Shown one piece after another: positions 2,259 through 60,478 of a stretch of DNA of 64,000 nt. Numbering within the stretch: position 1 is the stretch's first letter; each line of letters starts with the position of its first letter. The translations under genes and the position numbers were made by a program. The notes under the pieces were generated by a model. It saw nothing but the letters and a program-made list of their open reading frames with translations, was not told the origin of the DNA and did no database searches. Location of the stretch: the sequence record MN850651.1; one strand, 5' to 3'. The stretch comes from Escherichia phage moskry.

Positions 2259-2792
2259 TTATTTCAAAGTTGGGATAATAGAATCGAGATAAGCTTTAAG
2301 AGCAACTGCCTCATCTTTGTCTAATGTAATGATATGTTGACGAAGGTCATCAATTTGGCGAATAACTACGACATCACCATCTTCATAAGAAGGATTAACG
2401 CCTAGGACTGTTGTATAGTCAGGGCGGTCCTGATTTGTAATAAAAGCATTACGGCATTTAGCCCATTGAAGTTTGGCCTTTTTGGCTGTTTCAGATTCCA
2501 TTAATTCTTTCACCTTAGTGACAAATGTTTTCCAATTATTGATAGAAAAACATTCGTCTTCAGTTTCGATATTGGCTGCGTTGTAAAGACCAGGATAAAA
2601 ACGAACTTGGAGGTCTTCACCAATGTTAATTACCTCTCGACGACGTCCAGACGGATTGAGTTTCAAAATCTTGTCCAGTTCCATAGGAAGAATAGTAGCA
2701 GCATCATCTTCTTGTGTCAGAACATACACATAACCACGTTTTTCGATACATAAATCACCAAACAACTCGGTTGTTTCAATTACAGTTTTCAT
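2259..2792 (-). CDS. Hypothetical protein
   Basis: ORF track starts at TTG 2804; first ATG is codon 5 (MKTVIETT), giving 177 aa. Confidence 0.5.
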   Translation of the reverse strand: MKTVIETTELFGDLCIEKRGYVYVLTQEDDAATILPMELDKILKLNPSGRRREVINIGEDLQVRFYPGLYNAANIETEDECFSINNWKTFVTKVKELMESETAKKAKLQWAKCRNAFITNQDRPDYTTVLGVNPSYEDGDVVVIRQIDDLRQHIITLDKDEAVALKAYLDSIIPTLK

Positions 2793-2793
2793 A

Positions 2794-2973
2794 TTATTCA
2801 CCAATTAAAGTTTCAACAAAATTCACCAAATCATTCAGACAAGCATCAACCTGTTTTTCATAAAAGTCTTCGTTATCATTTACTGCGTGATAAGCTACAT
2901 CATTCAAATCCGAATCGGCTTCACGTAAGTCATGGATAAGGTCCATCAATTTATTAGCTTGTTCACGGGTCAT
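2794..2973 (-). CDS. Small acidic protein (59 aa), below ORF-track cutoff
   Basis: ATG at 2973; translation MTREQANKLMDLIHDLREADSD...; stop TAA overlaps next ATG (TAATATG). Confidence 0.35.
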   Translation of the reverse strand: MTREQANKLMDLIHDLREADSDLNDVAYHAVNDNEDFYEKQVDACLNDLVNFVETLIGE

Positions 2974-3099
2974 TTTACCATACTCGTTTCAATAAGATTC
3001 ACTATGCCGTTTACCATGTTATAAGTAAACATCGGATAATTGTATTGTACTACAACATAAGCGATAAGCAAAAGTTTCATTTTGTTCTCCGTTTGTTTT

Positions 3100-4184: not shown

Positions 4185-4766
4185 TTATAACAACCCTGTC
4201 AAATCATTCCAATGCTTCCGGCATAATGACACATATCTATCGGTATCACCAATTTCAATTTGACTGCCATCTGTAATTGGAAGTCCGTCTTCCGTGACTC
4301 TAGCTACCATTGTGGCCTTTTTACCACAATGACAGACACCTTTAAGTTCAACAAGCTTATCAGCAATAGCCATTAATGCTTGAGAACCTTCAAATAGATT
4401 ACCTTTAAAATCTGTTCGTAGTCCATATGCCATTACCGGCACATTGTATACGTCAACAATACGACTAAGTTGATACACCTTTTCAGTAGTTAAGAACTGA
4501 GCTTCGTCAACAAATACACAGTGAATATCCTTTTGTGCTGCAGCCCATTTATAGAATTCAAAGATATCCATGTCTTTTGTAATTATATTGGCGTCCTGAC
4601 GAATACCAATACGAGAGACTATTTCACCTTTTGAATCGCGAGTATCAATAGCCGGTTTAAGAACTAATACACCCATGCCACGTTCTTTATAGTTATGTGC
4701 GGCAGTAAGTAATGAAGCAGACTTACCAGCGTTCATAGCGGCATATGTAAAAATTAAACTAGCCAT
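4185..4766 (-). CDS. tk: Thymidine kinase
   Basis: 193 aa; P-loop AMNAGKS; C-terminal CHCG..C zinc motif; same length and position as T4 tk. Confidence 0.9.
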   Translation of the reverse strand: MASLIFTYAAMNAGKSASLLTAAHNYKERGMGVLVLKPAIDTRDSKGEIVSRIGIRQDANIITKDMDIFEFYKWAAAQKDIHCVFVDEAQFLTTEKVYQLSRIVDVYNVPVMAYGLRTDFKGNLFEGSQALMAIADKLVELKGVCHCGKKATMVARVTEDGLPITDGSQIEIGDTDRYVSLCRKHWNDLTGLL

Positions 4767-4956
4767 AAGAGTCCTTAGTTAAATTTTCTAAATATGTTTC
4801 CAAATCATTTTCAGCTTTATCGATAGATTTTACTAATTCGTAATATGTTTCGGCATCTCCATAATCAGAAGATAATTCAAAAGACAAATCCTTTTCTAAA
4901 CTAATAATTTCACCAACTAAAAATAATATTTCGTTCTTTTGTTCGCGAGTAATCAT
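4759..4956 (-). CDS. Small acidic protein (tk.1 position)
   Basis: 65 aa; ATG start; shares an N-terminal REQKNEILFL-type motif with the next ORF. Confidence 0.45.
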   Translation of the reverse strand: MITREQKNEILFLVGEIISLEKDLSFELSSDYGDAETYYELVKSIDKAENDLETYLENLTKDSYG

Positions 4957-5144
4957 AAGGAATTTATATAATCAATGAGTTCTTGTTCTTTATTATCGAA
5001 TTCTTTAGAAAGTTCTTCGTACTCGTTTGCGCTAAAAGGACCGCATTCATTACAAACTTTTTCCAATTCGCTATTTTTATCCATAACTTCGTGGATAAGA
5101 GAAAAGAGTCTGTCTTTTTGTTCTTTACTTAAACTCATAACCAT
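4953..5144 (-). CDS. Small acidic protein, paralog of 4759..4956
   Basis: ORF track starts at TTG 5159; ATG at codon 6 (5144); SKEQKDRLFSLIHEV motif; CNEC pair. Confidence 0.45.
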   Translation of the reverse strand: MVMSLSKEQKDRLFSLIHEVMDKNSELEKVCNECGPFSANEYEELSKEFDNKEQELIDYINSL

Positions 5145-5347
5145 GTCACCTTTAAGCAATATTCTTCTACATGTTGTTTACGGCCTTTCTTATCAATAAA
5201 GGTATATTCAACGAATGTTCCGATGTAGTCTTTATCTACATCATGTGGACTATTAATTGGACATTTAGTACGACAAATGCGTTCCCATTGACGAATAATT
5301 ACTGCCTTATTCTTTGGATCGTATGGATGTGGATAATGTATATTCAT
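5135..5347 (-). CDS. Hypothetical small protein
   Basis: ATG at codon 6 (5347) abuts the stop of the macro-like gene; 70 aa; Cys-x3-Cys pair. Confidence 0.4.
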   Translation of the reverse strand: MNIHYPHPYDPKNKAVIIRQWERICRTKCPINSPHDVDKDYIGTFVEYTFIDKKGRKQHVEEYCLKVTWL

Positions 5348-5841
5348 AATAACGGTTCCCAATCAACAATCACAATTTCTAGTTTAGTAGAATACGTATC
5401 TAAAATCTCTTCGATGACATCCCAGTTTCCACCACCAATACCTGCGCCAATTCTTGGCATATAAATTACAGGCTTTGTTATCTTATTCTTTCCGAATTCA
5501 TTTAATTCTATTATACAATTCATTAAAGCAGAGTACTCAAAATTAGGTCCAGGCTCAAACTGCGTATAAAGATTAAAGCAATAAGCTTTATGGGTCTTAA
5601 AATATTTTTCATAAACCGAATAAGACCCGAGTTTAGACTCGTCTCCATATGCAGTTTGAAGTTTATCGGCTTCCAGAATTTTTGGATAAGCCTTTGCTAA
5701 TTGTCCTGCCACACCGGCGCCCATTGTATGAAAACAATTACACCCATGAGCAATATTATTACCTTTAGAAAACAGGGCGACAATATCGCCCTTGATATAG
5801 TTTTTAATCACTTGCTGCAAGTCCTCTATTATAAGAGTCAA
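5344..5841 (-). CDS. Macro-domain-like protein (possible ADP-ribose binding/hydrolase)
   Basis: Motifs NIAHGCNCFHTMGAGVAGQL and PRIGAGIGGGNW resemble macro-domain Gly-rich loops; start is TTG 5841 or GTG 5811, no ATG. Confidence 0.45.
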   Translation of the reverse strand: MTLIIEDLQQVIKNYIKGDIVALFSKGNNIAHGCNCFHTMGAGVAGQLAKAYPKILEADKLQTAYGDESKLGSYSVYEKYFKTHKAYCFNLYTQFEPGPNFEYSALMNCIIELNEFGKNKITKPVIYMPRIGAGIGGGNWDVIEEILDTYSTKLEIVIVDWEPLL

Positions 5842-6151
5842 CTAGACGGTCTACCATAGAATTGCATGCTGCCTTATCTTTAGGTTCCGCCACCGAGCAT
5901 TCTAATATTTGCCATTTTTTATAGTATCTTTTAATTAAGGTAGACGCCTTGAACCTACTAGACGCCCCATCTTTTTCTCCGTCTTTATACGCATATAACA
6001 ATTTTTGTGAAAAATCTACTTTACACTCTTGACTTTTACCACAATAATCAGACGCCGTTCTGTTTGTATACTCCGTTACATCAGTATATGTAGTATTAGC
6101 AAGAGCGTTAAATGAAACCAAGCCAACTATTAAAGCCAACATTTTGGTCAT
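5804..6151 (-). CDS. Secreted small protein with four Cys (same position and length as T4 vs, identity unverified)
   Basis: 115 aa; ATG start; N-terminal MTKMLALIVGLVSFNALA signal-like segment. Confidence 0.45.
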   Translation of the reverse strand: MTKMLALIVGLVSFNALANTTYTDVTEYTNRTASDYCGKSQECKVDFSQKLLYAYKDGEKDGASSRFKASTLIKRYYKKWQILECSVAEPKDKAACNSMVDRLVDSYNRGLAASD

Positions 6152-6690
6152 TCTTTTATTTCCAGTAGTTTATTTGATTTAAGGTAATTAGCCTTTTCTA
6201 GGACTTCAGAAGCATATTTACTTCCAGCACTCGTCTTCCATCCCGCATTATATGAGGATATAGCTTTTCTTATATCCCCGTTATGTATATTTAACCAATA
6301 AGAAAATTCTATATAAGCCCATCTGGCTGAATTAGACCGCTTAGATAGCATTTTCTTAATTTGGGCATCAGTCATATTGTAACCAAGCTGGTTAATTCTT
6401 GCCCTCATTGTTGGTAGATAATTTTGGAACATTCCATACGCATGGTGACCTTTCTTATCTTTAAGATTAATACCGGCAGATGATTCTTGCCATAGTATTG
6501 CGGCCATTATGTATCCAAGTCCTTTCTTATGCATATTTTCATGCGTTTTAAATTTTCCATCCTTAGAAAACTGTTCCCCAAACTGATAAGCATAATTCAA
6601 GTTATCGAGTTGGACATTACTAAAAGTATGCTCGGAGCTATGTGCTGATAATGAAAGAGCAAATAGACCAGCGAGTAGTGCTTTTCTCAT
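6148..6690 (-). CDS. Periplasmic lytic-transglycosylase (SLT)-like protein
   Basis: 180 aa; signal-like N-terminus; WQESSAG and YGMFQ motifs resemble the SLT catalytic-Glu region. Confidence 0.5.
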   Translation of the reverse strand: MRKALLAGLFALSLSAHSSEHTFSNVQLDNLNYAYQFGEQFSKDGKFKTHENMHKKGLGYIMAAILWQESSAGINLKDKKGHHAYGMFQNYLPTMRARINQLGYNMTDAQIKKMLSKRSNSARWAYIEFSYWLNIHNGDIRKAISSYNAGWKTSAGSKYASEVLEKANYLKSNKLLEIKE

Positions 6691-6698
6691 GTTTACCT

Positions 6699-7157
6699 CT
6701 AGATTTTAATCACTGCTTTAGAAGCTTTTCCTGGTAGTCGTTTACTGTTAATAATAGCCATTCTGCATTGAAGAGTCTTCATTTTGAATGCCGGATTTTC
6801 GCGACAAACTGTAAGTCCCAACCAAAGATTTCCATCAGTTATTTCTAAACGGCCTGGACGGTATTCGACACCTTCGACAAAATCTTCATCAACATCTGGA
6901 CGTGCCGGCATTGATAAAAATTCTGCAACTTCTTTAACATGATTTTTTACTTTACGAAATAATTCAAAAACGTAATTCTCATCTATTTCTCTCTGGATGG
7001 CACGATCTAAGAGATGTTGAGAATACTTGATATGAAAGCCTGGTAGTCCAAGAGACTTTGCAGCATCTTTTATACTGGCATTTATTTTGCGGAACTCCGT
7101 TTCAAAGATTCGACGGAGTTTATTACGGCGGATAAAAACTTCCGAATTGATAGTCAT
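6699..7157 (-). CDS. regB: Site-specific RNA endonuclease RegB
   Basis: 152 aa; ATG start; long identical stretches to recalled T4 RegB (MTIN.EVFIRRNKLRR, YSQHLLDRAIQREID, GVEYRPGRLEITDGNLWLG, LQCRMAIINS.RLPGKASKAVIK). Confidence 0.85.
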   Translation of the reverse strand: MTINSEVFIRRNKLRRIFETEFRKINASIKDAAKSLGLPGFHIKYSQHLLDRAIQREIDENYVFELFRKVKNHVKEVAEFLSMPARPDVDEDFVEGVEYRPGRLEITDGNLWLGLTVCRENPAFKMKTLQCRMAIINSKRLPGKASKAVIKI

Positions 7158-7163
7158 TTTGAT

Positions 7164-7215
7164 TTCTCCTCTAGTTGACAGGTCTATAGTAACACAACTA
7201 GAGGAGATGTAAACT
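7164..7215 (-). promoter_or_regulatory. PeSL-like cassette with SD-containing stem (upstream of regB)
   Basis: Minus reading: GTTTACA, 18 nt, TACTAT; 13-bp arms TCTCCTCTAGTTG/CAACTAGAGGAGA, the 3' arm being the regB SD. Confidence 0.5.
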
Positions 7216-7217
7216 GC

Positions 7218-7427
7218 TTATTCTTGGAATGGTGTGAGTTTTCCAGCTATCGAACAAATTTCTACCATTGCAGGATAAAACTCTTTCACTTGTTCAAGGC
7301 GCTGGACAGCGTACCGCATTTCGCCTTCTTCAAGACAAGCCACCTGGTCATCGAGCAAATATTTATGGTAACCAGTACAGGCTTCACTAATGATACGTTG
7401 GAATTCTTGCAAACTTTCAATTTTCAC
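7218..7427 (-). CDS. Hypothetical small protein
   Basis: 69 aa; apparent GTG start with SD GAGGA 9 nt upstream. Confidence 0.4.
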   Translation of the reverse strand: MKIESLQEFQRIISEACTGYHKYLLDDQVACLEEGEMRYAVQRLEQVKEFYPAMVEICSIAGKLTPFQE

Positions 7428-7693
7428 TAGTATTTTTCCTCAGGTCGAAATACTGCACGACACGCCCACATGCTGGCTTCTTTTAGATGTTGCTTAGCGT
7501 ACTTAAGAGCCTGCACTGCATCCATATCTTCTTTGGTTTGTTGCTCTGTTTCGTTTTCTTTCAAGATATATGCTTCTTCAATCAGAGCATCAAACAACAA
7601 TCCAAGACGGACTTCAGCATCTTTAATAGCGTTCACTTTACCGATTTTATCATCAGTATGCGGCTTGTAGCCTTTGATGTCTTCAATCGACAT
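7427..7693 (-). CDS. Hypothetical protein
   Basis: ORF track starts at TTG 7861; ATG at codon 57 (MSIEDIKG) fits the overlap with the upstream gene; 88 aa. Confidence 0.35.
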   Translation of the reverse strand: MSIEDIKGYKPHTDDKIGKVNAIKDAEVRLGLLFDALIEEAYILKENETEQQTKEDMDAVQALKYAKQHLKEASMWACRAVFRPEEKY

Positions 7694-7907
7694 AAGGAAT
7701 TTCCTCATCAGTGGCAAGGTCATATTCGACCAATTGGATAGGCTCATTAATACCATATCCACGTACAGTGATATCAGTTGTCGGATAGTTTCCAGTAATA
7801 TCACCCATTCTAAATGATTCAATGAATGATTGCTCGCCTGAGCAACTAAACCAGGCGGCAAAACATTTTAAAACATCTTCAGACCCTTCTATAATCAATT
7901 TAGCCAT
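7683..7907 (-). CDS. Hypothetical small protein
   Basis: 74 aa; ATG overlaps the stop of the GrcA-like gene. Confidence 0.4.
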   Translation of the reverse strand: MAKLIIEGSEDVLKCFAAWFSCSGEQSFIESFRMGDITGNYPTTDITVRGYGINEPIQLVEYDLATDEEIPYVD

Positions 7908-8269
7908 TATAGACTCTCAGTAAAGGTACGAGCGATAACGTCGCGCTGCTGTTCTGGAGTCAGAGAGTTAAAGCGAACTGCATAACCGGATACACGAATG
8001 GTCAGCTGCGGATATTTTTCCGGATGCTTAACTGCATCTTCCAGAGTTTCACGACGCAGAACATTAACGTTCAGGTGTTGACCACCTTCAATTTTAACTT
8101 TAGGTTGATGTTCAATTTCAATTTCACGGGCATTCAAACCGTAGAAAATTTCCGGGTCTACAATAGCGTCTTCTTTAAAAGTCTTAGAGACAATAATCCG
8201 GGCTTGAGTACCGTCTTCAAAATAAATAGTGCCTTTGTGTGTGCCTTCAAGAATTTGATATGCTTTCAT
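7907..8269 (-). CDS. grcA: Autonomous glycyl-radical cofactor (GrcA/YfiD)-like protein
   Basis: 120 aa; ATG with SD GAGG; C-terminal about 60 aa ([60 protein letters not shown]) matches recalled E. coli GrcA, including the RVSGYAV glycyl-radical motif. Confidence 0.8.
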
Positions 8270-8275
8270 ATAACC

Positions 8276-8584
8276 TCAATTAGAAAATAAATTTATCCAA
8301 GTTTTTTCTTTAATCAAAAATGGGTCGGAATTAAACGCCATTAAACTTTGAGTGATTAATCCCTTAAATGGCCCATCAATAAATTCCATTTTGAAATGTG
8401 GAATACTAGTCATCAACCGTGCATTAGGAGCAGTACAAAGAACCTGCTGCCCTGCGAACGGACCTTTAGTCAAACGATATCGTTTAGGTTTAAAATGGTA
8501 AATCTCGTAATTTTCTACAAGGGCCCTTTTATTGCATACTGGGCTGTTATAACAATACTCAAAAACTTCAATAGTGGTCATCAT
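8276..8584 (-). CDS. Hypothetical protein
   Basis: ORF 8276..8632; ATG pair at codons 17-18 adjoins the stop of the upstream gene; about 102 aa. Confidence 0.4.
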   Translation of the reverse strand: MMTTIEVFEYCYNSPVCNKRALVENYEIYHFKPKRYRLTKGPFAGQQVLCTAPNARLMTSIPHFKMEFIDGPFKGLITQSLMAFNSDPFLIKEKTWINLFSN

Positions 8585-9120
8585 TGCATTCCAATCACAA
8601 AAAATTGAGGACGAGCAATACCGCCGTTGCAATATTTACTTTTGCAACAGTGTTGGACTGTTTTAATATGGATGTCGTAAATCTTATCCATATCAGGAGC
8701 TTTAATAGGCTCGTCAATTATATACAGAATACGAGAAAGCGTTAATCCACGGAATTTATGTCCTTCATTACCAATAAAACTACGGACAGAATCAGTAAAT
8801 AAACGGAATCGAATATCATCGCTAGAATAACGAGAAAATTCTTTTTCAATGTTGCCAGCAGAAATTTTAGCATAAGCTGAAGTATTAGAAAGAACAATAA
8901 CTGTTCCACCATCATACAGCCAATTAGCAGCAAAATTAGTTACTGCGGTCGATTTACCTGATTGTCTGCCGCCGTCTAAACGAAGTGTACAGTACTGCTT
9001 GAGTACGTCTTCGAATGGTGGGATATAACCGTTCTTACAAATTTCTTCTACTCTAGCATCAGAATGGTGTGTAAAAGCATTCATCAGGGATAGATAAGGA
9101 CCAGTTAAAAATGTTCTCAT
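8581..9120 (-). CDS. P-loop NTPase or kinase-like protein
   Basis: 179 aa; ATG start; Walker A LDGGRQSGKST. Confidence 0.5.
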   Translation of the reverse strand: MRTFLTGPYLSLMNAFTHHSDARVEEICKNGYIPPFEDVLKQYCTLRLDGGRQSGKSTAVTNFAANWLYDGGTVIVLSNTSAYAKISAGNIEKEFSRYSSDDIRFRLFTDSVRSFIGNEGHKFRGLTLSRILYIIDEPIKAPDMDKIYDIHIKTVQHCCKSKYCNGGIARPQFFVIGMQ

Positions 9121-9288
9121 TTAGTTTCTCTTAAGGTTGGGGCCATTCCATGGCGCATGAATTGTCCATTTCTGTATTTACCCATTACCGCACTTGGGCA
9201 CGACCTTATTACAGGTTGGAAAAGGTACATCACTCAGAGGACTCGACGTTCATGAGGAGAGGTTGCGTTTCCCTTTATTAGGCAAGAA

Positions 9289-9618
9289 TTATACTCTAGG
9301 CTTTTGAGCTTGTTTGGTATTGGATTCCCATGCGGCTTTGGTAATTTTGTTAGCGGCATAACCAAAGGCATTAGATAGAACACCTTTAGAGTTGAATACA
9401 TCCAATCCAATAAGTACACCGGCTGTGTTAAATTTAGGAGCAAAGTACGCATTAGTTTTAGAAAGAGCTTTTTTCAATTCAGGGTCTTGAACCAAGCTAT
9501 CAAAAACACCTTTACTATTTACTTTATATGTTACTTTGGGATTTTTACCTTCTTCGATAGCAGCTTTCTGTTCCGCAGATAATGTAACTTCAGTGATAAA
9601 CTCCTGATATGTTTTCAT
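9289..9618 (-). CDS. Internal-protein-like (capsid targeting sequence) protein
   Basis: 109 aa; N-terminus MKTYQEFITE matches the recalled T4 internal-protein CTS (MKTYQEFIAE) with an L/I-x-E cleavage context. Confidence 0.6.
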   Translation of the reverse strand: MKTYQEFITEVTLSAEQKAAIEEGKNPKVTYKVNSKGVFDSLVQDPELKKALSKTNAYFAPKFNTAGVLIGLDVFNSKGVLSNAFGYAANKITKAAWESNTKQAQKPRV

Positions 9619-34973: not shown

Positions 34974-34981
34974 TATAAATA
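34974..34981 (+). promoter_or_regulatory. Late promoter TATAAATA for gene 9
   Basis: Exact TATAAATA 33 nt upstream of ATG 35014. Confidence 0.65.
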
Positions 34982-35013
34982 GAATATAATATCGGACAAC
35001 AAAAGGCAGAATT

Positions 35014-35886
35014 ATGGCATTTTTTAAGCAAACTCCTAAACAATTAATCGATACCGGCGAAATTGGTAATGCCTCAACAGGTGATATCTTATTCGACGGT
35101 GGTAATAAAATAAATGACGATATCAACGCTATTTACAATGCATTTGGCGATCAACGTAAAATGGCCGTAGCAGATGGAACCGGACCTACAGGTCAAACTA
35201 TTCATGCCACAGGTTATTATCAAAAAGGAAAGGCGGTCGATTATCAAACTCCTATTAAACCAGGCACTATGCATGATATTGATGCTTCTGATGGTGGTGT
35301 GATTGTTATTATTGACCGTCCTGAATTAGGTGACTCCGTAGAATTCATAAACTCTAATGGGTCTATTTCTGTTAACAATCCTTTAAGTATCCAAGTAACT
35401 GATGGTTCAATTAAAGGTGTTCTTAATAATCTTGTTATTTCCACCCCTTATACCCATGTTGTTCTTCGTTGTGTTGAAATTAATGGGCCGACTTCAGTAT
35501 GGAATTATTCTACTGATAGCATGTTTGGGCAGAAAGAATCTCCTGTCGATGGGACTTGGAGTCTTACAGGAAACACAGTTTCTATTCCTCTGTTTTATCG
35601 CACAGATTATAACATGGCTAAATTGCTTGTTACATGTCAATCCGCTGACGGTAGAAAAATAAAAACATGTGAAATAAATATTCTAATAGATACAATTAAC
35701 TCAGAAGTTCTTTCTACCGAATTTGCAGTAATGCGAGTTGGTAATGTAGATGAAACCGACGAGATTGCTAATATTAGCTTTAGTATTATTAACAACTTTG
35801 CTACTATGACGATTACATCCGATATTATTGGATTACGTTCGGCAGTTAAAATTATCTCAACTCAGAAAATTGGGGTCGCTCAATAA
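35014..35886 (+). CDS. 9: Baseplate wedge / long tail fibre socket gp9
   Basis: 290 aa (T4 gp9 is 288); gene order. Confidence 0.8.
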   Translation: MAFFKQTPKQLIDTGEIGNASTGDILFDGGNKINDDINAIYNAFGDQRKMAVADGTGPTGQTIHATGYYQKGKAVDYQTPIKPGTMHDIDASDGGVIVIIDRPELGDSVEFINSNGSISVNNPLSIQVTDGSIKGVLNNLVISTPYTHVVLRCVEINGPTSVWNYSTDSMFGQKESPVDGTWSLTGNTVSIPLFYRTDYNMAKLLVTCQSADGRKIKTCEINILIDTINSEVLSTEFAVMRVGNVDETDEIANISFSIINNFATMTITSDIIGLRSAVKIISTQKIGVAQ

Positions 35887-37691
35887 TGAAACAAAATATT
35901 AAAATTGGTAACGTCGTTGATGACGGACAAGGCGATTACCTTCGTCGAGGTGGTGAAAAAATAAATGAGAACTTTGACGAAATCTATTATGAATTAGGTG
36001 ATGGTGAAGTTCCTTATGCCGCTGGTGCATGGAAGACTTATGATGCGGCTGATGGTCTTAATCTTAAGGCTGCTTGGGGTAAATCTTATGCAATTAATAC
36101 TACTTCTGGGCGAGTTTCGGTAAATCTTCCTAAAGGGACAATTGCAGACTATAATAAAGTTATTCGTGCCCGTGACGTATTTGCAACTTGGAACATTAAC
36201 CCTGTTACTTTAATTCCGGCAAACGGAGACACGATTAAAGGTTCTTCATCTCCGGTGGAAATTAACGTTCAGTTCTCTGATTTAGAATTAGTTTATTGTG
36301 CTCCTGGACGTTGGGAATACATCAAGAACAAACAAATTGACAAAATAGTTAGCTCTGACATTAGTAACGTTGCTCGTAGAGAATATCTGGTTGAAACCCA
36401 AGGTCAGACCGATTTCATGGATGTTTTTAACGGGACCTCTTATAACGTTAACAACATTCGCGTAAAACATCGTGGCAACGAATTGTACTATGGTGATGTA
36501 TTCAGTGATAACAGTGATTTTGGTTCTCCAGGCGCTAATCCTGGTGAACTGGTTGCACTCGATGGATTTAATATTAGATTACGCCAACCGTGTAATGTTG
36601 GGGACACTGTACAAATTGAGACATTCCTAGATGGTGTTTCTCAGTGGCGTAGTTCATATACTCGTCGCCAAGTTCGCATTTTAGATAGTAAATTGACTGC
36701 TAAAAAGTCTATTGACGGAAGTATTTACGTCACTGATTTGAGTACGTTCCGGTCTATTCCATTTACAGCATTTGGTATTAATCCTACGGAACCACCTAAC
36801 CCTAATTCGTTAGAAGTTCGCTTCAATGGTATTCTCCAAGAATTAGCTGGTACTGTTGGAACTCCTATTTTCCGTTGTGAAGGTGTGGATGCTGATTCTG
36901 AAGAGTCATGCGCTAATCTCGGTGGGACGTGGACTCAATCGTATACAGATTATGCGATTGAATATACTGATAATATCCCTAGCGCAATTCTGTTTGACCG
37001 TCAATTTGAAGACCAAGACATTATTACCATCACATGGTTTAATAACGATTTAGGAACTCTTCTTGAAATGGAAGAAATCCTTGATGTCGCTGATGAGAAA
37101 TATGTTTCTCAAGGGTCTAACATTGAAATTACTGGTGACGTTGCATTAACCGATTTCGATAAAATTGGATGGCCTAATGTAGAACCTGTTCCTAAGTATG
37201 AACGTGAATTCTCGACTATCTCAGCAATATTTGATACAATTTATCCTGTCGGGACTATTTACGAAAATGCGGTTAACCCTAATAATCCGGCAACTTATTT
37301 AGGTTTTGGTTTGTGGAAAATTTGGGGACAAGGCAAAGTATTAGCAGGTTGGAATGACGACGCATCCGATCCTAATTTTGCATTAAATAATAATGACCTT
37401 GACGTCAATGGTAACCCTACTCATACCGCAGGTGGTACCGTTGGTGTAACAACCATCACATTAGAAAATGCTGATTTACCAGCTACACAAACCGATGAAA
37501 AGGTTCTTATTTCTGATGATAATGGTACAGTAATTATAGGCGGTTGCCAATATGACCCGGATGAAGAAGGTCCTATTTACACTAAATATCGTGAAGACCA
37601 TGCAAAGACTAATGGATCTCATGTTCCAGCGCGTTCTATAACTAATATTCAGCCATCTATAACTGTATACCGTTGGGTAAGGATTGCATAA
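35886..37691 (+). CDS. 10: Baseplate wedge and tail pin gp10
   Basis: 601 aa (T4 gp10 is 602); gene order. Confidence 0.85.
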
Positions 37692-38350
37692 TGACTGTAC
37701 TTAATACAAAGGCGGGAGTTATTTCCCGTCATGCTGATTTTTTGAATTACAGAAAAAATCCAGCTCAAATTGATGTTTTAAACAACCAAGCTGTAGGTTC
37801 CGTGACTATTTCTCAGTTAGCTCGCGGTTTTTATGATGCTAACGTAGAATCTGCAATAAATGATGTCCATAATATGGCACGAGCTGATATTGGTACTGTT
37901 GTCACAAACACTTCAGGCGTATCGCCTGAAGGTACAGCACAAGTTGATTATTGGACTTTTTCTGGTGATGTTCTCGACGATACTTTGACCACTGGAACGC
38001 CAGTCGTTATTAACGTATTTGGACTTGCTGTTAAAGCAACAATCGGTATGACTGATAACGAATTAACGGCACAAGTTCGTATAGCTTTACAAGAAGCCAT
38101 TGCTAATCAAATCGCTATTTCTTCTTATAAAGACCATCCATCCGAAGGTAATAAACTTCAGGTGACATATTTAGATAACCAACGTCATGTGTTGCCAACA
38201 TATGCTTCGTTTGGTGTAACAATTTCGCAAGAAATTTTGTCTGAAGCAAAATCCGGATACGGAACATGGAATTTATTAGGTGCCCAAACGGTTACTCTTG
38301 ATAACCATGATACTCCTACCGTTTTCTACCACTTTGTGAGAGCCTCATGA
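37691..38350 (+). CDS. 11: Baseplate wedge and tail pin gp11
   Basis: ATG at codon 7 of the ORF track gives 219 aa, the T4 gp11 length; stop of gene 10 overlaps the ATG. Confidence 0.8.
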
Positions 38351-39930
38351 GTAATAACAATACATACCAACACGTTTCAAATGAATCTATTTACGTTGAA
38401 TTCGACCCTACTGGGTCGAATTTTCCAGATACAGTCACTAATGTCCAAGCCGCATTAGCTGCTATTTCTCCTTCAGGTGTTAATGGCGTACCGGAAGCAA
38501 CAACTACTACACCTGGAATTATTCAAATAGCCACTCCACAAGAAGTTATTGATGGATTAGATAATAGTAAAGCTGTTACTCCGGCATCACTGAATGCTCG
38601 TCTACAATATCCTAATGCAACCGAAACTCAATATGGTTTAACTCGTTATGCTACTGAAGATGAAGCAGTAGCCGGAGCTATTGACGATGCATCAATTACT
38701 CCGCTTAAATTGAATCAAAAAATAGACAATGTATTCCAGACAAAAGTATCAACAGAAGCAACAAATGGTGTAATTAAAATTTCAACTTCTGCTGCGGCAT
38801 TAGCTGGTTCTGACGATACAACGGCAATGACCCCGTTAAAAACACAACAATTAGCAATTAAACTTATTTCACAAATTGCTCCAAATAATGGTGACGCCAC
38901 CGAATCTATTACCGGTGTTGTTCGTTTGGCTACAGTTGCTCAAGCACAACAAGGCACCCTGCGTGAAGGCTATGCAATTTCACCTTATACCTTTATGAAT
39001 TCAGTAGCATCAGAAACTAATAAAGGTGTCGTTAAACTAGGGACACAGACTGAAGTAAATAGTAACAACTCTTCAGTTGTAGTGACTGGCGCAACATTAA
39101 ACGGGCGTGGGGCTACAACTTCTTTACGTGGAGTTGTTCGTTTAACTACACAAGCGGGTAGCCAATCAGGTGGTGATGGTTCTTCTGCCCTTGCTTGGAA
39201 TGCTGATGTTATCCACCAACGAGGTGGACAAACTATTAATGGCACGCTTCGCATTAATAATACGTTGACGGTTGGTTCTGGTGGAGCTAATATAACTGGT
39301 AATGTCAATATGACTGGTGGTTATATTCAAGGCAATCGTATTGTGACTCAAAATGAATTAGACCGAATTCTTCCAGTTGGCGCTATTACAATGTGGGCTG
39401 CAGATAGTTTACCGAGTTCTGACTGGCGCTTCTGTCACGGTGGGACCGTTTCTGCTTCAGAATGTCCGGTATATGCTTCCAGAATTGGGACACGATATGG
39501 TGGTAGTTCTTCTAACCCAGGCTTGCCTGATATGCGTGGATTATTTGTTCGCGGCTCAGGTCGTGGTAACCATTTAACTAACCCTAATGTTAATGGTAAT
39601 GACCAATTCGGTAAGCCTCGTCTGGCGGTAGGTTGTACCGGTGGATATGTTGGTGAGGTGCAAAAACAACAGATGTCATATCATAAGCATGCTGGCGGTT
39701 TTGGTGAACATGACGATGCAGGAGCATTCGGTAATACTCGTCGTTCAAACTTTGTTGGTACTCGTAAAGGACTTGACTGGGATAACCGTTCGTATTTTAC
39801 TAACGATGGATATGAAATTGATCCAGCGTCTCAGCGTAACTCTAAATATACCCTGAATCGTCCTGAATTAATTGGAAATGAAACACGTCCATGGAACATT
39901 TCTTTAAACTATATCATTAAGGTAAAATAA
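38347..39930 (+). CDS. 12: Short tail fibre gp12
   Basis: 527 aa, the T4 gp12 length; Gly/Thr-rich repetitive fibre-like sequence. Confidence 0.85.
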
Positions 39931-41378
39931 TGGCTGATATAACTCTGGTAGATTTACCATATGTTGACGGCCCGCCAGACGCGGGTCAGAGTCGTATTGA
40001 ATGGATTAAAAACGATGAAGAAATAACAGGTGCTGACACAAAATACGGTTCTGAAGGTGTAATGAACCGTCCTATTGTTGAAGTTCAACGTAACGTAGAA
40101 GCGTTAGATGTTAATATTAAAACTATAGCATCTTCTTTGAATACGGCCAATGAAGATATCAAAGTTATTCAAGGTATTTTAGATGTTTCTGGGGATGTTG
40201 ATGCTCTTTCACAGATAGGTCAGAACACCCAAGATATCGATGTCATTAAAGTCACAGTTCAAACCCATGCCAGTGAATTGAATGATTTGAATGAACATAT
40301 TGATGCGAATACTGATGATATTGGTGTTTATAATCAGGAAACAGATTCAGTTTATAGAACGGTTCGTAACGACCTGCTTTGGATTAAAAATGAATTAGGA
40401 CAATATACCGGTCAAGATATTAATGGGGTTCCTACTCCAGGAAATGATAGCACTGGTATGAAACGCCGTATTATGACTAATAGCTCCGTAATTGTTGACC
40501 ACGGTGTTCGTTTAACCGATTTAGAAACTAAATTTGCTGATTCTGACGTCGGCTCTTTAACTATTGAAGTCGAACACTTGCGCGAAGAAATGGGACCTCG
40601 CACTTCTTTCACTACTCCAGTGTTTAGTCGTCTTTCCAGTATTGATTTAACTTTATCGCGTCAAAATGCTGACTTGGATGGCATTAAACAGTCTATTGGG
40701 TATCCTAATACGACTTCTATTATTACTACAACTAATGCGAATAGTTCAGCAATAAACGACATTAATCTTGAGCTCAATCAATCAGGCGGTATTAAACCTC
40801 GTTTGACTACAGTAGAAACTGCCATTGGCGCCGATGATTTGCCTACTACAATCCAAGGACGTATTAAACTCAATACTGATGCTATCGGAGCATTGAATAC
40901 TGTTGTCGGCTCTGATTCTTCGTCAGGATTGCGTTTTAATGTGTCATGGTTAAATAACGTAGTTGGTGTTGACGCTTCAGGTGGGAAACCGGAACCAGAC
41001 GGCTCTTTGCTTTATCGTACTCGAGAGCTTGAAGGAACTATCGGTGGGCTGAGTAATGACATTCAGAACATTCAAACTGATGTTGGGACTAATTCCACAG
41101 GAATTAAGGGTTCTGTAAACACATTAAATACTCTTATAAATGGCACCAACCCAAATGGTTCGACTGTTGAAGAACGCGGTATATTGCCTACAGTTAAAAG
41201 TCATGATACGACAATTAATGGTTTAACTTCTAGAATTGCTACTCTTGAAACTGATTTGGCCGCTGCAGAAGCTGAAATCCAAACTCTTAAGGACGCTGGA
41301 TATATTGAAGATGCTCCTTCAGACGGTAAATTCTATGTTCGCAAAGATGGTGCATGGGTTGAACTTCCTACAGCTTAA
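39930..41378 (+). CDS. wac: Fibritin (neck whiskers)
   Basis: 482 aa (T4 Wac is 487); extended coiled-coil repeats; C-terminal GYIEDAPSDGKFYVRKDGAWVELPTA resembles the recalled foldon. Confidence 0.85.
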   Translation: MADITLVDLPYVDGPPDAGQSRIEWIKNDEEITGADTKYGSEGVMNRPIVEVQRNVEALDVNIKTIASSLNTANEDIKVIQGILDVSGDVDALSQIGQNTQDIDVIKVTVQTHASELNDLNEHIDANTDDIGVYNQETDSVYRTVRNDLLWIKNELGQYTGQDINGVPTPGNDSTGMKRRIMTNSSVIVDHGVRLTDLETKFADSDVGSLTIEVEHLREEMGPRTSFTTPVFSRLSSIDLTLSRQNADLDGIKQSIGYPNTTSIITTTNANSSAINDINLELNQSGGIKPRLTTVETAIGADDLPTTIQGRIKLNTDAIGALNTVVGSDSSSGLRFNVSWLNNVVGVDASGGKPEPDGSLLYRTRELEGTIGGLSNDIQNIQTDVGTNSTGIKGSVNTLNTLINGTNPNGSTVEERGILPTVKSHDTTINGLTSRIATLETDLAAAEAEIQTLKDAGYIEDAPSDGKFYVRKDGAWVELPTA

Positions 41379-41384
41379 TGAAAA

Positions 41385-41398
41385 GGGCCTTCGGGCCC
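41385..41398 (+). terminator. Stem-loop after wac (weak terminator)
   Basis: GGGCC-TTCG-GGCCC hairpin; no T-run. Confidence 0.35.
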
Positions 41399-41410
41399 TA
41401 AAGGATTTAT

Positions 41411-42337
41411 ATGTCAGGTTATAATGCACAAAACCCTAAAGAATTAAAGGATGTAATATTACGTCGTTTAGGCGCTCCTATTGTAAATGTTGAATTAACT
41501 ACAGACCAAATTTATGATTGTATTTCACGAGCGTTAGAACTTTATGGCGAATACCATTTTGACGGGTTGAATAAAGGTTTCCATGTATTTTTTGTTGATG
41601 ACGAAGAAAAATACCGTCACGGCGTATTTGATATGCGTGGTTCTAACGTATTTGCTGTAACAAGAATTATAAGAACAAACGTTGGCTCTATTACTTCAAT
41701 GGATGGTAATGCAACTTATCCATGGTTCACTGATTTCCTTTTAGGAATGGCAGGTGTTTCAGGTGGTATGGGTAGTAATTGTGGTAAATTCTACGGCCCG
41801 AACGCTTTTGGCGCTGACCTCGGGTATTATTCTCAATTAGTATCTTATATGGGTATGCTTCAAGATATGATTGCTCCTCTTCCAGATTTTTGGTTTAACT
41901 CTGCAAACGAGCAATTAAAAGTAATGGGTAACTTTAGACAGAAAGATGTCATTATCGTTGAATCGTACGTTCGCTCTTATATCGAGACCCATAAGATGGT
42001 AGGAAATACAGTAGGGTACGGTCAGGTCGGTCCTCGTGATTCATGGTCTATTTCTGAACGTTATGATAATCCAGACCATAATTTGGTCGGACGTCGAGTT
42101 GGTGAAGATCCTGCAACTAAACAAGGCGCATATAACAACCGCTGGGTTAAAGATTATGCAACTGCATTAGCTAAAGAGCTTAATGGACAAATTCTTGCTA
42201 AACATCAAGGTATGATGTTACCGGGTGGCGTCACTGTTGATGGTGTTCGATTAATTGAAGAAGCTCGTTTAGAGAAAGAAGCTTTACGAGAAGAGTTATA
42301 TTTACTGGACCCTCCTGCAGGTATTTTGGTAGGTTAA
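41411..42337 (+). CDS. 13: Neck protein gp13
   Basis: 308 aa (T4 gp13 is 309); gene order. Confidence 0.8.
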
Positions 42338-42338
42338 T

Positions 42339-42974
42339 ATGGCAACATACTACAGATTGTATATTACAACATTTGAAACATCCACCGGTATAAAGATTTA
42401 TGGTGGTAAACACAAATCAGTTTACGAAGACCCTTCAAAAGACCCTTATACTGGGTCTGGTACCTTTATACGAAGGGCCAAAAGAAAATACGGTCCGTCT
42501 TGTATAAAAGAAATTATATGGTCTAAGCCATTTGAATCTAAAGCTCTAATGGATGAAGCTGAAGAGTTACTGGTAGATGAATTATCCATTTTAGAAAATT
42601 GCGCAAATCTTGTTAAAGGTGGTGCAGGCGGAAGGTCGTATATTAACCCAGAAGATAATCCATCTATAGGACAAAAACGTTCAGTCCAAACTAAAAAGAA
42701 AATGTCTGACGCCGCAAAATCAAGAAAATGGACTGAAGAAGGGTTAAGAAAACGTAAAGAATCTACAGCAAGAATGTGGAAAGATTTCAAACATAGACAT
42801 CCTGATTTTTCTGGTTCAAAAAATCCAGCAGCTCGAAAAGTTAGTGTAAATGGTAAAATATTTAACACCTGCAAAGAATGTGGTGAAGAATTTAATATCA
42901 CATCAAGCGCGGTTATAGGCCGATGCAAAAACAACAAACCTAAATGGGCAGGATGGAATTATGTCGACGTATAA
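42339..42974 (+). CDS. GIY-YIG family homing endonuclease (seg-like)
   Basis: 211 aa; ATG 1 nt after the gene 13 stop; N-terminal [21 protein letters not shown] fits the GIY-x(10)-YIG pattern; basic C-terminus with CxxC..C; 3' end overlaps the gene 14 ATG by 14 nt. Confidence 0.6.
42339..42974 (+). mobile_element. Putative free-standing homing endonuclease gene insertion between genes 13 and 14
   Basis: T4 has 13 followed directly by 14 (recalled); this extra ORF fills the junction exactly. Confidence 0.45.
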
Positions 42975-43725
42975 TTCAAATTTATTTGCAAAGTTAGAAA
43001 ACCGAGAAGGCTATTCTAAAACTAATGAAACCGAGATTTTAAACAAATACGTGAACTTCAACAAATACGAAAATAGTCAGACATTAGCCGATGTTCTAGT
43101 GGCAGAAAGCATACAGATGCGCGGTATTGAATGTTTTTATGTTCCACGTGAATATGTTGCCGTGGACCTTATCTTTGGTGAGGACCTTAAAAATAAATTT
43201 ACTAAAGCATGGAAATTTGCGGCATATCTGAACTCATTTGAAGGTTATGAAGGAGCGAAATCGTTCTTCAGCAACTTCGGAATGCAAGTTCAAGACGAAG
43301 TTACATTATCTATTAACCCGGGTCTTTTCAAACACCAGGTCAACAATCAGGAGCCCAAGGAAGGTGATTTAATATACTTCCCAATGGACAACAGTTTGTT
43401 TGAGATTAACTGGGTTGAACCATATGACCCATTCTATCAAGTAGGTAAAAATGCGATTCGTAAAATTACTGCAGGCAAGTTTATTTACTCTGGCGAAGAA
43501 ATCAATCCGGTGCTTCAGAAAAATGAAGGTATCAATATACCTGAATTTAGTGACTTGGAACTTAACCCTGTTAGAAATCTTGACGGTATCCATGACATTA
43601 ATATCGATGAATATTCTGAAGTTGAGCAAATCAATTCAGAGGCAAGTGAATACGTTGAGCCGTATGTAGTAGTTAACAACCGTGGTAGACAAAATTCACC
43701 ATTTGACGATGGGTTTATGAATTAA
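42961..43725 (+). CDS. 14: Neck protein gp14
   Basis: 254 aa (T4 gp14 is 256); gene order. Confidence 0.8.
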
Positions 43726-43774
43726 TAAATAGATAAGATAAAGCAAACACCGGTCGAAAGGCCGGTTAGGAGAA

Positions 43775-44599
43775 ATGATGTTTGGTTATTTTTACAACTC
43801 GTCGTTCAGGCGATATATCACAATGATGGGCGATTTGTTTTCAAATATCCAAGTTAACCGTCAATTGTCTACAGGCAATAAATTAATTAGAGTTCCTATT
43901 ACGTATGCATCTAAAGAGCACTTTATGATGAAACTTAATAAATGGACCTCTATAAACTCACAAGAAGATGTGGCTAAAGTCGAAACTATTCTACCACGTA
44001 TAAATCTCCAAATGGTAGATTTCGTTTATAACCCAACGTTTAAAACGAATATATTGAATAACTCTCTTTTGAGTAAATCGACTAAGGATATTGTAGACCA
44101 ATACAACCCATCACCAATTAAAATGATTTTTGAACTGAGCATCTTTACTCGTTATGAAGATGATATGTTCCAAATCGTTGAGCAAATTATTCCATATTTT
44201 CAGCCGCATTTTAATACGACTATGATTGAGCAATATGGGCAGGATATTCCATTTGAAAGGGATATTAAAGTCGTATGGATGGCAGCAGCAATGGATGAAC
44301 AAATAGACGGTGATAATTTATCCCGTCGACGTTTAGAGTGGTCATTAACATTTGAAGTAAATGGATGGATGTATCCTCCGGTAGGCGCAGCTGAAGGCCT
44401 TATTAAAACGACTTATCTTGATTTTCATGCTAATGAACGAGACCTTCAAACAGCCGCCAGTGTTTTTGAATCAGTTGATACAGAAATTAAACCGAGAGAC
44501 GTTGAAGCACAAGATTGGAATGGCGAAGTTGAACAAACTTATACTCATGATATTCCAATCCCGACTCCACCAACCCCTCCTGGTCCTAGAAAACAATAA
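43775..44599 (+). CDS. 15: Tail sheath stabiliser / tail terminator gp15
   Basis: 274 aa (T4 gp15 is 272); gene order. Confidence 0.8.
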   Translation: MMFGYFYNSSFRRYITMMGDLFSNIQVNRQLSTGNKLIRVPITYASKEHFMMKLNKWTSINSQEDVAKVETILPRINLQMVDFVYNPTFKTNILNNSLLSKSTKDIVDQYNPSPIKMIFELSIFTRYEDDMFQIVEQIIPYFQPHFNTTMIEQYGQDIPFERDIKVVWMAAAMDEQIDGDNLSRRRLEWSLTFEVNGWMYPPVGAAEGLIKTTYLDFHANERDLQTAASVFESVDTEIKPRDVEAQDWNGEVEQTYTHDIPIPTPPTPPGPRKQ

Positions 44600-46922
<2,323 letters not shown>

Positions 46923-54929: not shown

Positions 54930-54953
54930 TCTTAATTGATTAAATCTTATTTT

Positions 54954-54983
54954 GGGAGACTTCGGTCTCCCATTTTTGGTTTT
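54954..54983 (+). terminator. Intrinsic terminator after gene 23
   Basis: Stem GGGAGAC-TTCG-GTCTCCC followed by a T-rich run. Confidence 0.7.
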
Positions 54984-55251
54984 ATTTCTGTGCAATTTTG
55001 ATGTAAGTTTTCAAAATATTTTGCCAATTAGGCATACCTTCTTGGATATATGCTGGAGAACCGTCTTTGTTTTTGAATGATGCAAGTTTATCAGTGGCCC
55101 AATAACCTTTAGCTCGAGCTTCAGAATCAACTTTCATCCATACTTTGTTGAAGGCATTACCATTAACTTTTGCACCATATTTTTCTACTAACTTAACTGC
55201 TTCAGCTTCCAGAACTTTTAAAGTATCTCGTAAGAAACGTGCTTTAGTCAT
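54982..55251 (-). CDS. Small basic protein on the opposite strand between genes 23 and 24
   Basis: 89 aa; ATG in the same leader (GTCATTTTGTTTACTCCTCTG on plus strand) as the ORF at 18362; SD GAGGAG. Confidence 0.5.
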   Translation of the reverse strand: MTKARFLRDTLKVLEAEAVKLVEKYGAKVNGNAFNKVWMKVDSEARAKGYWATDKLASFKNKDGSPAYIQEGMPNWQNILKTYIKIAQK

Positions 55252-55260
55252 TTTGTTTAC

Positions 55261-55312
55261 TCCTCTGTAGTTGATAAGTCTATAGTATCATATACCAAAT
55301 ACGTTGTAAACA
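55261..55312 (-). promoter_or_regulatory. PeSL-like early promoter cassette inside the late module
   Basis: Near-duplicate of 18371..18422; minus reading GTTTACA, spacer, TACTAT-like -10. Confidence 0.5.
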
Positions 55313-55317
55313 ATCTT

Positions 55318-55325
55318 TATAAATA
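55318..55325 (+). promoter_or_regulatory. Late promoter TATAAATA for gene 24
   Basis: Exact TATAAATA 28 nt upstream of ATG 55353. Confidence 0.6.
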
Positions 55326-55352
55326 ATCTATATCACATAAGGAAAAAATGCA

Positions 55353-60428: not shown

Positions 60429-60441
60429 GGTATTTCCTCAT

Positions 60442-60449
60442 TATAAATA
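60442..60449 (+). promoter_or_regulatory. Late promoter TATAAATA for uvsW
   Basis: Exact TATAAATA 30 nt upstream of ATG 60479. Confidence 0.55.
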
Positions 60450-60478
60450 TAACTATATTTATTACATGGTAATTTGAC

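Follow-up and report, generated by a model that had tools for sequence, protein, structure and literature searches.

A predicted endonuclease gene between the neck genes 13 and 14

We analyzed 64,000 nucleotides of one strand of the genome of Escherichia phage moskry (sequence record MN850651.1), in the following called the window; all positions are counted from its first letter. The phage is a Mosigvirus, that is, an RB69-like T-even phage, and its nearest records are S143_2 (99.6%) and RPN187 (99.3%). In the window an open reading frame is wedged between the neck genes 13 and 14. An initial annotation made from the letters alone had proposed that it encodes a homing endonuclease of the GIY-YIG type, similar to the Seg proteins of phage T4. 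The reading frame and its two neighbors are arranged as follows.

41411–42337, + strand: gene 13 (neck protein, head-tail adaptor), matching PHROG 211, head-tail adaptor Ad2, at 2e-43.
42339–42974, + strand: endonuclease open reading frame with ATG start, 211 amino acids, a predicted free-standing Seg-type GIY-YIG homing endonuclease gene.
42961–43725, + strand: gene 14 (neck protein, head closure), matching Pfam T4_neck-protein at 2e-127.

The stop codon TAA of gene 13 occupies positions 42335–42337 and is followed by a single spacer base, a T at 42338, and then by the ATG of the open reading frame. At the other end the ATG of gene 14 at 42961 lies within the endonuclease frame, and the two genes overlap by 14 nt (42961–42974). 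The outer neighbors are fibritin upstream of gp13 and gp15 downstream of gp14. These coordinates agree with those given initially, and also in T4 gene 13 is followed by gene 14 with the identical 1-nt spacer and no gene between, as the initial annotation had stated. It had further been stated that the positions at which T4 carries segD and segE hold no endonuclease here. We checked both gaps, between genes 23 and 24 (54930–55352) and between inh and uvsW (60429–60478), and found no endonuclease in either. A tblastn search of the 64-kb window with SegC, SegF, SegH, the "segC" product of phage Phi1 and an HNH query matched no locus except the 13/14 open reading frame.

The reading frame fits closely between the stop codon of gene 13 and the start codon of gene 14, outside any intron or intein. 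All relatives have genes 13 and 14 as two complete and distinct genes, and an Rfam search of positions 41000–44000 at E ≤ 1 matched no family, group I introns included. Thus, the gene is not intron-encoded in the manner of I-TevI. In the GenBank records of near-identical phages it is labeled "GIY-YIG endonuclease" or "homing endonuclease".

Domains and relatives of the encoded protein

The PHROG family 314, "homing endonuclease", matches residues 1–210 of the protein (1.3e-37). In pairwise BLASTP comparisons it is 33% identical to T4 SegC over residues 4–197 (E = 2e-15) and 37% identical to T4 SegF over residues 4–98 (E = 2e-14), and it also aligns with SegH of phage RB3 (E = 6e-15). Further homologues are found at 1e-64 to 1e-139. 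With hhalign, a profile of 12 sequences covering residues 1–100 matched a profile of Pfam-positive GIY-YIG proteins and I-TevI at 97.1% (E = 7.4e-11, 84 columns), a value which has to be read with the caveat that the seven GIY-YIG proteins of the target were found using this family's own profile. All seven have a precomputed PF01541 match, a re-check of three of them confirmed scores above the Pfam cutoff, and the I-TevI sequence was verified against the PDB entries 1mk0 and 1ln0. Significance required profiles on both sides, as the family profile did not match the single I-TevI catalytic sequence significantly (0.3% probability). A phmmer search of the PDB with the single sequence returned noise plus a weak match to the I-TevI DNA-binding domain; with the 12-sequence profile the C-terminal match improved (1i3j, 2.5e-5) and the catalytic domain was still unmatched. 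NCBIfam yielded no match to the catalytic domain either, and its group-I-intron endonuclease model covers the C-terminal half only, below the cutoff. Judged by these similarities, the initial assignment to the Seg family of free-standing GIY-YIG homing endonucleases is essentially right, with SegC as the closest protein overall and SegF as the closest in the nuclease domain. The protein can be divided into three parts.

42339–42638, + strand: N-terminal GIY-YIG nuclease domain (residues 1–100) with RLY 6–8, YGG 21–23, DxYxGSG 35–41, E75 and N90.
42651–42785, + strand: helical linker with a NUMOD3-like motif (residues ~105–149; Pfam NUMOD3 at residues 105–123, 20.0 bits, sub-threshold).
42813–42950, + strand: C-terminal I-TevI-type helix-turn-helix DNA-binding domain (residues ~159–204), matched by the I-TevI DNA-binding domain.

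The predicted fold is confident, and for the nuclease domain it is the alpha/beta fold of I-TevI and the UvrC N-terminal domain. The RLY and YGG motifs lie on the predicted strands 4–14 and 17–27, and Y8, Y21, G22 and G23 are invariant among 12 homologues. The N-terminal peptide cited in the initial annotation is present in the translation. Its spacing had been given as GIY-x(10)-YIG; the actual distance from RLY to YGG is 12 residues, as in SegF. E75 and N90 carry the same numbers as the catalytic, metal-binding glutamate and the conserved asparagine of I-TevI. The glutamate is invariant in 12 sequences and nearly so in 46, the asparagine is invariant in 46, and the region around E75 aligns with I-TevI residues 68–86.

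The structure model places the helices of the linker at residues 116–127 and 133–149, and the C-terminal part is a modular DNA-binding region of the NUMOD3 and/or I-TevI-type helix-turn-helix kind. A C-terminal DNA-binding module had indeed been predicted, and this part of the prediction holds; the proposed CxxC..C element does not. The cysteines C178, C181 and C196 are present in this copy, but only C181 is invariant among 12 homologues. A zinc-binding module was therefore ruled out, and we regard the C-terminal module as a helix-turn-helix rather than a zinc finger.

The best full-length match in T4 is SegC, which has the same three-part architecture and scores with the Pfam models SegE_GIY-YIG, NUMOD3 and I-TevI_DNA-bd. 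The two proteins share the motifs YxGxHK and DxYxGSG..AxKKYG. SegC differs in its motif spacing of 10 residues instead of 12, in passing the SegE_GIY-YIG cutoff which the window protein fails, and in its locus between 5.1 and 5.4, so that its target is presumably different. In SegF, encoded between 56 and soc, the nuclease domain is 37% identical with the same 12-residue spacing and, like that of the window protein, invisible to Pfam, whereas the C-terminal halves do not align significantly and are unrelated, and the locus is another one. SegF is cited as biochemically characterized, under the term "intronless homing" (Belle et al. 2002 as cited in PMC1564403). RB3 SegH, located between nrdD and nrdG, is 33% identical over residues 1–165, also matches in the C-terminal helix-turn-helix and is likewise placed within one operon, overlapping both neighbors; it is however longer (276 amino acids), contains extra NUMOD3 repeats and occupies another locus. 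SegH was reportedly characterized by Sandegren et al. in 2005. The window protein differs from I-TevI of the T4 td intron in several respects: its gene is not located in an intron, its linker lacks the I-TevI zinc finger and R27 is not conserved; with the I-TevI catalytic domain alone the sequence similarity is not significant.

The insertion takes over the start of gene 14

Alignments with relatives reveal three features at the borders of the gene.

42328–42350, + strand: captured translation start, composed of GGTAGG (42328–42333), TAA (42335–42337) and ATGGCAAC.TA.
42950–42963, + strand: replacement start of gene 14, composed of AGGA (42950–42953), a 7-nt spacer and the ATG at 42961, within the last endonuclease codons.
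42961–43008, + strand: recoded 5′ end of gene 14, in which 16 of 48 nt (33%) differ from relatives without the gene.

In the relatives without the gene, GGTAGG, TAA and ATGGCAAC.TA contain the ribosome site and the first four codons (M-A-T-Y) of gene 14. There the junction reads ...GGTAGGTTAA-T-ATGGCAACTTATGAT... and the gene 14 product begins with MATYDKNLF; the empty site is TAA-T-ATG, as in T4. In the carriers it is the endonuclease which begins with ATGGCAACATACTAC (MATYY), and its first four codons are those of gene 14. Thus, the ribosome site, the ATG and four codons of gene 14 have been taken over by the endonuclease gene. The replacement ATG of gene 14 lies within the end codons W-N-Y-V-D-V-stop of the endonuclease, and the AGGA at 42950–42953 could act as the ribosome site of gene 14. 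A comparable GGA..ATG arrangement is seen in the Gaprivervirus and Klebsiella-phage carriers described below.

In the recoded block eight codons are changed synonymously and four non-synonymously. Four of the differences fall in the 14-nt overlap and 12 beyond it, and the following 72 nt contain a single one. Database searches found the recoded variant in the 12 carrier records only. The same searches identified no donor of the 48-nt block, the nearest non-carrier matches being 75–79% identical and coming from several genera, and no phage which has the recoded block without the gene, that is, a footprint of loss. On the other side of the insertion, the 3′ end of gene 13, which would be the left homology arm, is unchanged: its last 100 nt are identical to those of KAW3E185 and F27, both without the gene. 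Gene 13 contains no fixed carrier-specific differences, and its diversity among carriers equals the divergence between carriers and non-carriers. We regard the recoded block as a putative disrupted target or a co-converted donor tract. The combined proposal that the empty 13/14 junction is the target and that the recoded block confers immunity seems to us evenly poised.

Distribution and diversity within Mosigvirus

Only 12 of the 242 phage records that match genes 13–14 carry the open reading frame (98.2–99.6% identity), compared to about 138–148 Mosigvirus records of at least 95% identity without it, with a length difference of exactly 622 bp. The lower number of non-carriers stems from the search with genes 13–14, and 148 were counted in the search with the empty junction. 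The latter search found the junction uninterrupted in 606 phage records overall. It had been foreseen that an alignment of the junction across T4-like genomes would reveal an insertion polymorphism, and this is what we observe, since most genomes lack the gene and the empty site is precise. The carriers come from several countries, among them China, Thailand, the Philippines, Poland and Denmark. The gene is intact in all 12, and its polymorphisms are 12 synonymous versus four conservative non-synonymous changes. Given the homologues, the intact copies and the mostly synonymous polymorphisms, the reading frame is not a product of chance.

We then aligned the 12 carriers (the window and 11 records) and seven non-carriers over ±6 kb. 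Carrier-specific fixed sites occur only at the left junction (42347–42355) and at 42982–43008. Among the carriers the nucleotide diversity is 0.004–0.005 in the endonuclease gene and 0.015–0.019 in gene 13, thus about threefold lower in the inserted gene. All carriers have one haplotype up to about position 43078, which is shared by some non-carriers; beyond this position both classes are mosaic. In the left flank of 6 kb the window is nearest to non-carriers (99.1–99.3%; ECO26.1, AV110 99.3%) and is 97.9–98.4% identical to the other carriers. In the right flank carriers and non-carriers are likewise interleaved. The low diversity of the gene, together with the fact that the carriers are not most closely related to one another in their backbones, suggests a recent horizontal spread. 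The pattern describes a young, selectively maintained element which spreads horizontally through older and diverse backbones with very short co-conversion tracts.

The Mosigvirus phages AV110, SSE1, PHB12 and SA79RD possess a different Seg-like gene, located between genes 33 and 59 in a segG-like position. As AV110 has this gene and lacks the one at 13/14, the content of homing endonucleases varies between Mosigvirus isolates.

The same junction in other T4-like phages

In most of the 66 T4-like loci from IMG/VR, 3–24 nt separate genes 13 and 14. Homologues with 55–60% identity over the full length are located at the 13/14 junction of the Gaprivervirus phages VR26/RZ, of a vB_EcoM_005-like phage and of Klebsiella T4-like phages. 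The chimeric start and the recoding of gene 14 were checked in VR26/RZ only. Here the homologue is 58% identical and begins with MATYY, of which MATY equals the gene 14 start, and the identity to non-carrier relatives is 81–85% at the 5′ end of gene 14 versus 92–98% in the flanks. The homologues at this junction belong to other genera than the window, and in Gaprivervirus the recoded tract is longer (~115 nt versus 48 nt). Across genera the identity of the endonucleases (58%, 55%) parallels that of gp13/gp14 (62–66%, 52–53%), which fits a long residence at the locus and not recent jumps between genera.

Two further types of endonuclease genes are found at this position. The "segC" of Phi1 and RB49-type phages is only 29% identical to the window protein and represents a separate Seg lineage. 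In the Tequatrovirus vB_EcoM_G2540-3 the junction carries an HNH enzyme of 270 amino acids (MK327944.1, positions 1691–2503 of our locus L093; Pfam HNH_4 24.4 bits, cutoff 22), and the 5′ end of gene 14 is not recoded. With at least two Seg lineages and one HNH endonuclease, the junction is a recurrent landing site.

Extending this, we tentatively propose, with somewhat less than even confidence, that the 13/14 junction is a long-lived landing pad for several endonuclease families, and that the Seg lineage described here is a self-contained cassette which captures a start, reissues gene 14 and carries its own immunity. Such a cassette may take the ribosome site and four codons of gene 14 and restart gene 14 from its own 3′ end, and the synonymously recoded gene 14 leader of 48–115 nt may block self-cleavage. 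As the divergence of the endonucleases tracks that of gp13/gp14, the lineage would have co-diverged with its hosts over genus-level time in spite of an occupancy of about 8%. If this is true, the landing pad is a natural test case in phages for the cycle model of invasion, loss and re-invasion.

Several database entries from this junction deserve mention. The Phi1 gene (NC_009821.1, positions 2501–3085 of our locus L005) lies between 13 and 14 and not at the T4 segC locus 5.1/5.4; its name reflects similarity and not position. The HNH protein of G2540-3, annotated only as "hypothetical protein", has a 100% identical copy in a metagenomic contig (positions 2820–3632 of locus L012). In an IMG/VR contig matching vB_EcoM_005 (MK295203.1; positions 4472–6066 of locus L065) a duplicated stretch of 33 codons from the 5′ end of gene 14 precedes the homologue and is fused to it in frame, and gene 13 contains an internal duplication. 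This arrangement is either a real rearrangement from an ectopic insertion or a misassembly.

Expression context

For the open reading frame we searched for an excess of sigma-70-like promoters and for a terminator and found neither. No RNA hairpin masks the start codon of the endonuclease gene or that of gene 14, and no significant RNA structure was found at either start. The window contains 18 copies of the T4 late-promoter core TATAAATA against 8 expected, and none of 100 shuffles reached 18. Most copies shortly precede late genes on the coding strand, and none lies on the + strand from 34981 to 46918.

Proposed mechanism

We suggest that the gene is maintained and spreads in the following steps. 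The gene would be transcribed along with the late neck operon, without a promoter of its own. The endonuclease would then be translated from the ribosome site and the first four codons that serve gene 14 in other phages, and its last codons would provide gene 14 with a new Shine-Dalgarno sequence and ATG, so that the essential neck genes remain expressed. Upon co-infection of a carrier and a non-carrier, the enzyme might bind the intact 13/14 junction of the non-carrier through its helix-turn-helix and linker and cut nearby. Recombination-dependent repair of the T4 type could copy the gene plus at least 48 nt of the adjoining recoded gene 14 from the carrier, and the gene would be over-transmitted in crosses. 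The carrier genome itself would be immune because its own site is split by 622 bp and the right half is recoded by 33%. Since the junction is nearly identical in T4, further T4-like phages are plausible targets, too.

Evidence against homing and alternative explanations

Several observations weigh against a functional homing endonuclease. The protein has no match to the Pfam catalytic models PF01541 (GIY-YIG) and PF19835 (SegE_GIY-YIG) at E ≤ 1, and NUMOD3 (20.0 bits, cutoff 20.4) and I-TevI_DNA-bd (22.6 bits, cutoff 27) both stay just below threshold. The catalytic arginine R27 of I-TevI has no clear counterpart; MAFFT and hhalign place Y37 of the DxYxGSG motif at its position. An occupancy of about 8% (12 of ~160 close records) is low for an efficient homing element. 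The left flank carries no signal of hitch-hiking, and gene 13 is undifferentiated between carriers and non-carriers. The low diversity within the gene may be due in part to purifying selection, though most variants are synonymous, and the perfect linkage of the 48-nt block could be plain adjacency and not selection for immunity. A dedicated late promoter (TATAAATA) was not found near the open reading frame, the nearest upstream copy on the + strand being at 34974. Finally, in the literature searched we found no biochemical or genetic data on the protein or its close homologues.

A match to PF01541 and NUMOD profiles had been put forward in the initial annotation as a test of the assignment. 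By this test it fails, yet the test was too strict. In a control with known enzymes the proven SegF has no Pfam match at all and SegH sub-threshold matches only, whereas SegC passes PF19835. The missing match is therefore no refutation: the Pfam catalytic models under-cover the Seg subfamily, which is a weakness of the models and not of the assignment. As to the arginine, the motif that holds Y37 is common to SegC, SegF and SegH, and basic residues (K24/H25/K26 and R45/R46) are located near the putative R27 position.

The same points could indicate that the protein is a domesticated or catalytically altered relic which has kept DNA binding through its helix-turn-helix and has lost homing, its patchy distribution being the result of ordinary recombination and loss. 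I-TevI, for example, acts as a regulator at its own operator. The absent R27 counterpart and Pfam GIY-YIG match, the low occupancy and the lack of a co-conversion signal in gene 13 are all in line with such a relic. We nevertheless consider it improbable, as SegF and SegH, which are proven enzymes, have the same motif set and also fail Pfam, and E75, N90 and the tyrosines of the GIY/YIG motifs are invariant across 12–46 homologues. Furthermore, the excess of synonymous over conservative polymorphisms (12 versus 4) applies to the whole reading frame including the nuclease domain, the element is threefold less diverse than its flanks and in conflict with the backbone relationships, and no degenerate copies were seen. 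Slightly less probable again is that the gene primarily benefits the phage, for instance by exclusion of co-infecting relatives or by recombination and amplification near the cut, with homing as a by-product. SegB, indeed, has recently been reported to amplify anti-defense loci. The neighborhood of the present gene, however, contains no defense or anti-defense gene, the flanks being essential neck genes, its rarity among isolates speaks against a strong benefit, and an element-linked recoded site combined with a precise empty site is the classical pattern of selfish homing. A spurious, non-functional reading frame in AT-rich DNA or an assembly artifact can practically be dismissed. Nothing except the missing Pfam match of the catalytic domain speaks for it, and it is refuted by the identical insert in 12 independently sequenced phages from several countries, by homologues at 1e-64 to 1e-139, by the confident fold and by the evident purifying selection. 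Taken together, we think it quite probable that the gene encodes a functional mobile Seg-type endonuclease with the predicted catalytic activity.

Relation to earlier reports and possible use

Within the literature searched, no paper described an endonuclease located at the 13/14 junction. The gene is an uncharacterized member of the Seg family which is already labeled in GenBank, and its biology is expected and not surprising. The same is true for the captured start, the recoded leader and the hotspot for several families, which are tidy but expected features of homing endonucleases. A review from 2010 lists RB69 as a phage without homing endonuclease genes and sees no convincing evidence for movement between genera (PMC2993671). 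As the type phage of Mosigvirus was reported to lack such genes, the gene documents a recent invasion of this genus.

The highly conserved 13/14 junction, uninterrupted in over 600 sequenced T4-like phages, T4 among them, is probably a new target for the Seg family. The 12 carriers, about 140 non-carriers and the sharply bounded recoded block are a ready system to map the recognition site of a Seg enzyme. The same natural set is suited to test immunity by flanking recoding and to measure the length of co-conversion tracts. In practical terms, such genes skew the inheritance of markers in mixed infections with therapeutic cocktails of T4-like phages.

Further observations on the locus and on database records

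An antisense open reading frame of 163 amino acids (− strand, 42446–42937) is completely contained in the endonuclease gene. Nothing indicates that it is a real gene, and a mirror reading frame is the most likely explanation. Between fibritin and gene 13, at 41384–41399, we noticed a perfect GC-rich palindromic hairpin (AGGGCC-TTCG-GGCCCT). It is a putative terminator according to the annotation of KAW3E185, yet no late-promoter consensus is present between the hairpin and gene 13.

Some records of related phages contain irregularities. In PV204681.1 (vB_EcoM_JQD51; positions 6001–8315 of our locus L076) the product names are displaced by one gene, so that "endonuclease" stands at gene 13, "head closure protein" at the endonuclease, "tail sheath stabilization protein" at gene 14, and so forth. 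In OY726582.1 (NicPhage; positions 8368–9316 of locus L080) gene 15 is annotated as two overlapping coding sequences with about 127 extra bases compared to the window, possibly owing to a frameshift, a duplication or a sequencing error. Phage F2 (NC_054913.1) is filed as Tequatrovirus efftwo, although its sequence in this region is 99% identical to Mosigvirus phages; this is probably a taxonomic misassignment. Finally, the 99%-identical protein cluster found with the endonuclease carries the NCBI name "hypothetical protein [Shigella flexneri]", and T4-like phage DNA is therefore contained in a bacterial assembly.

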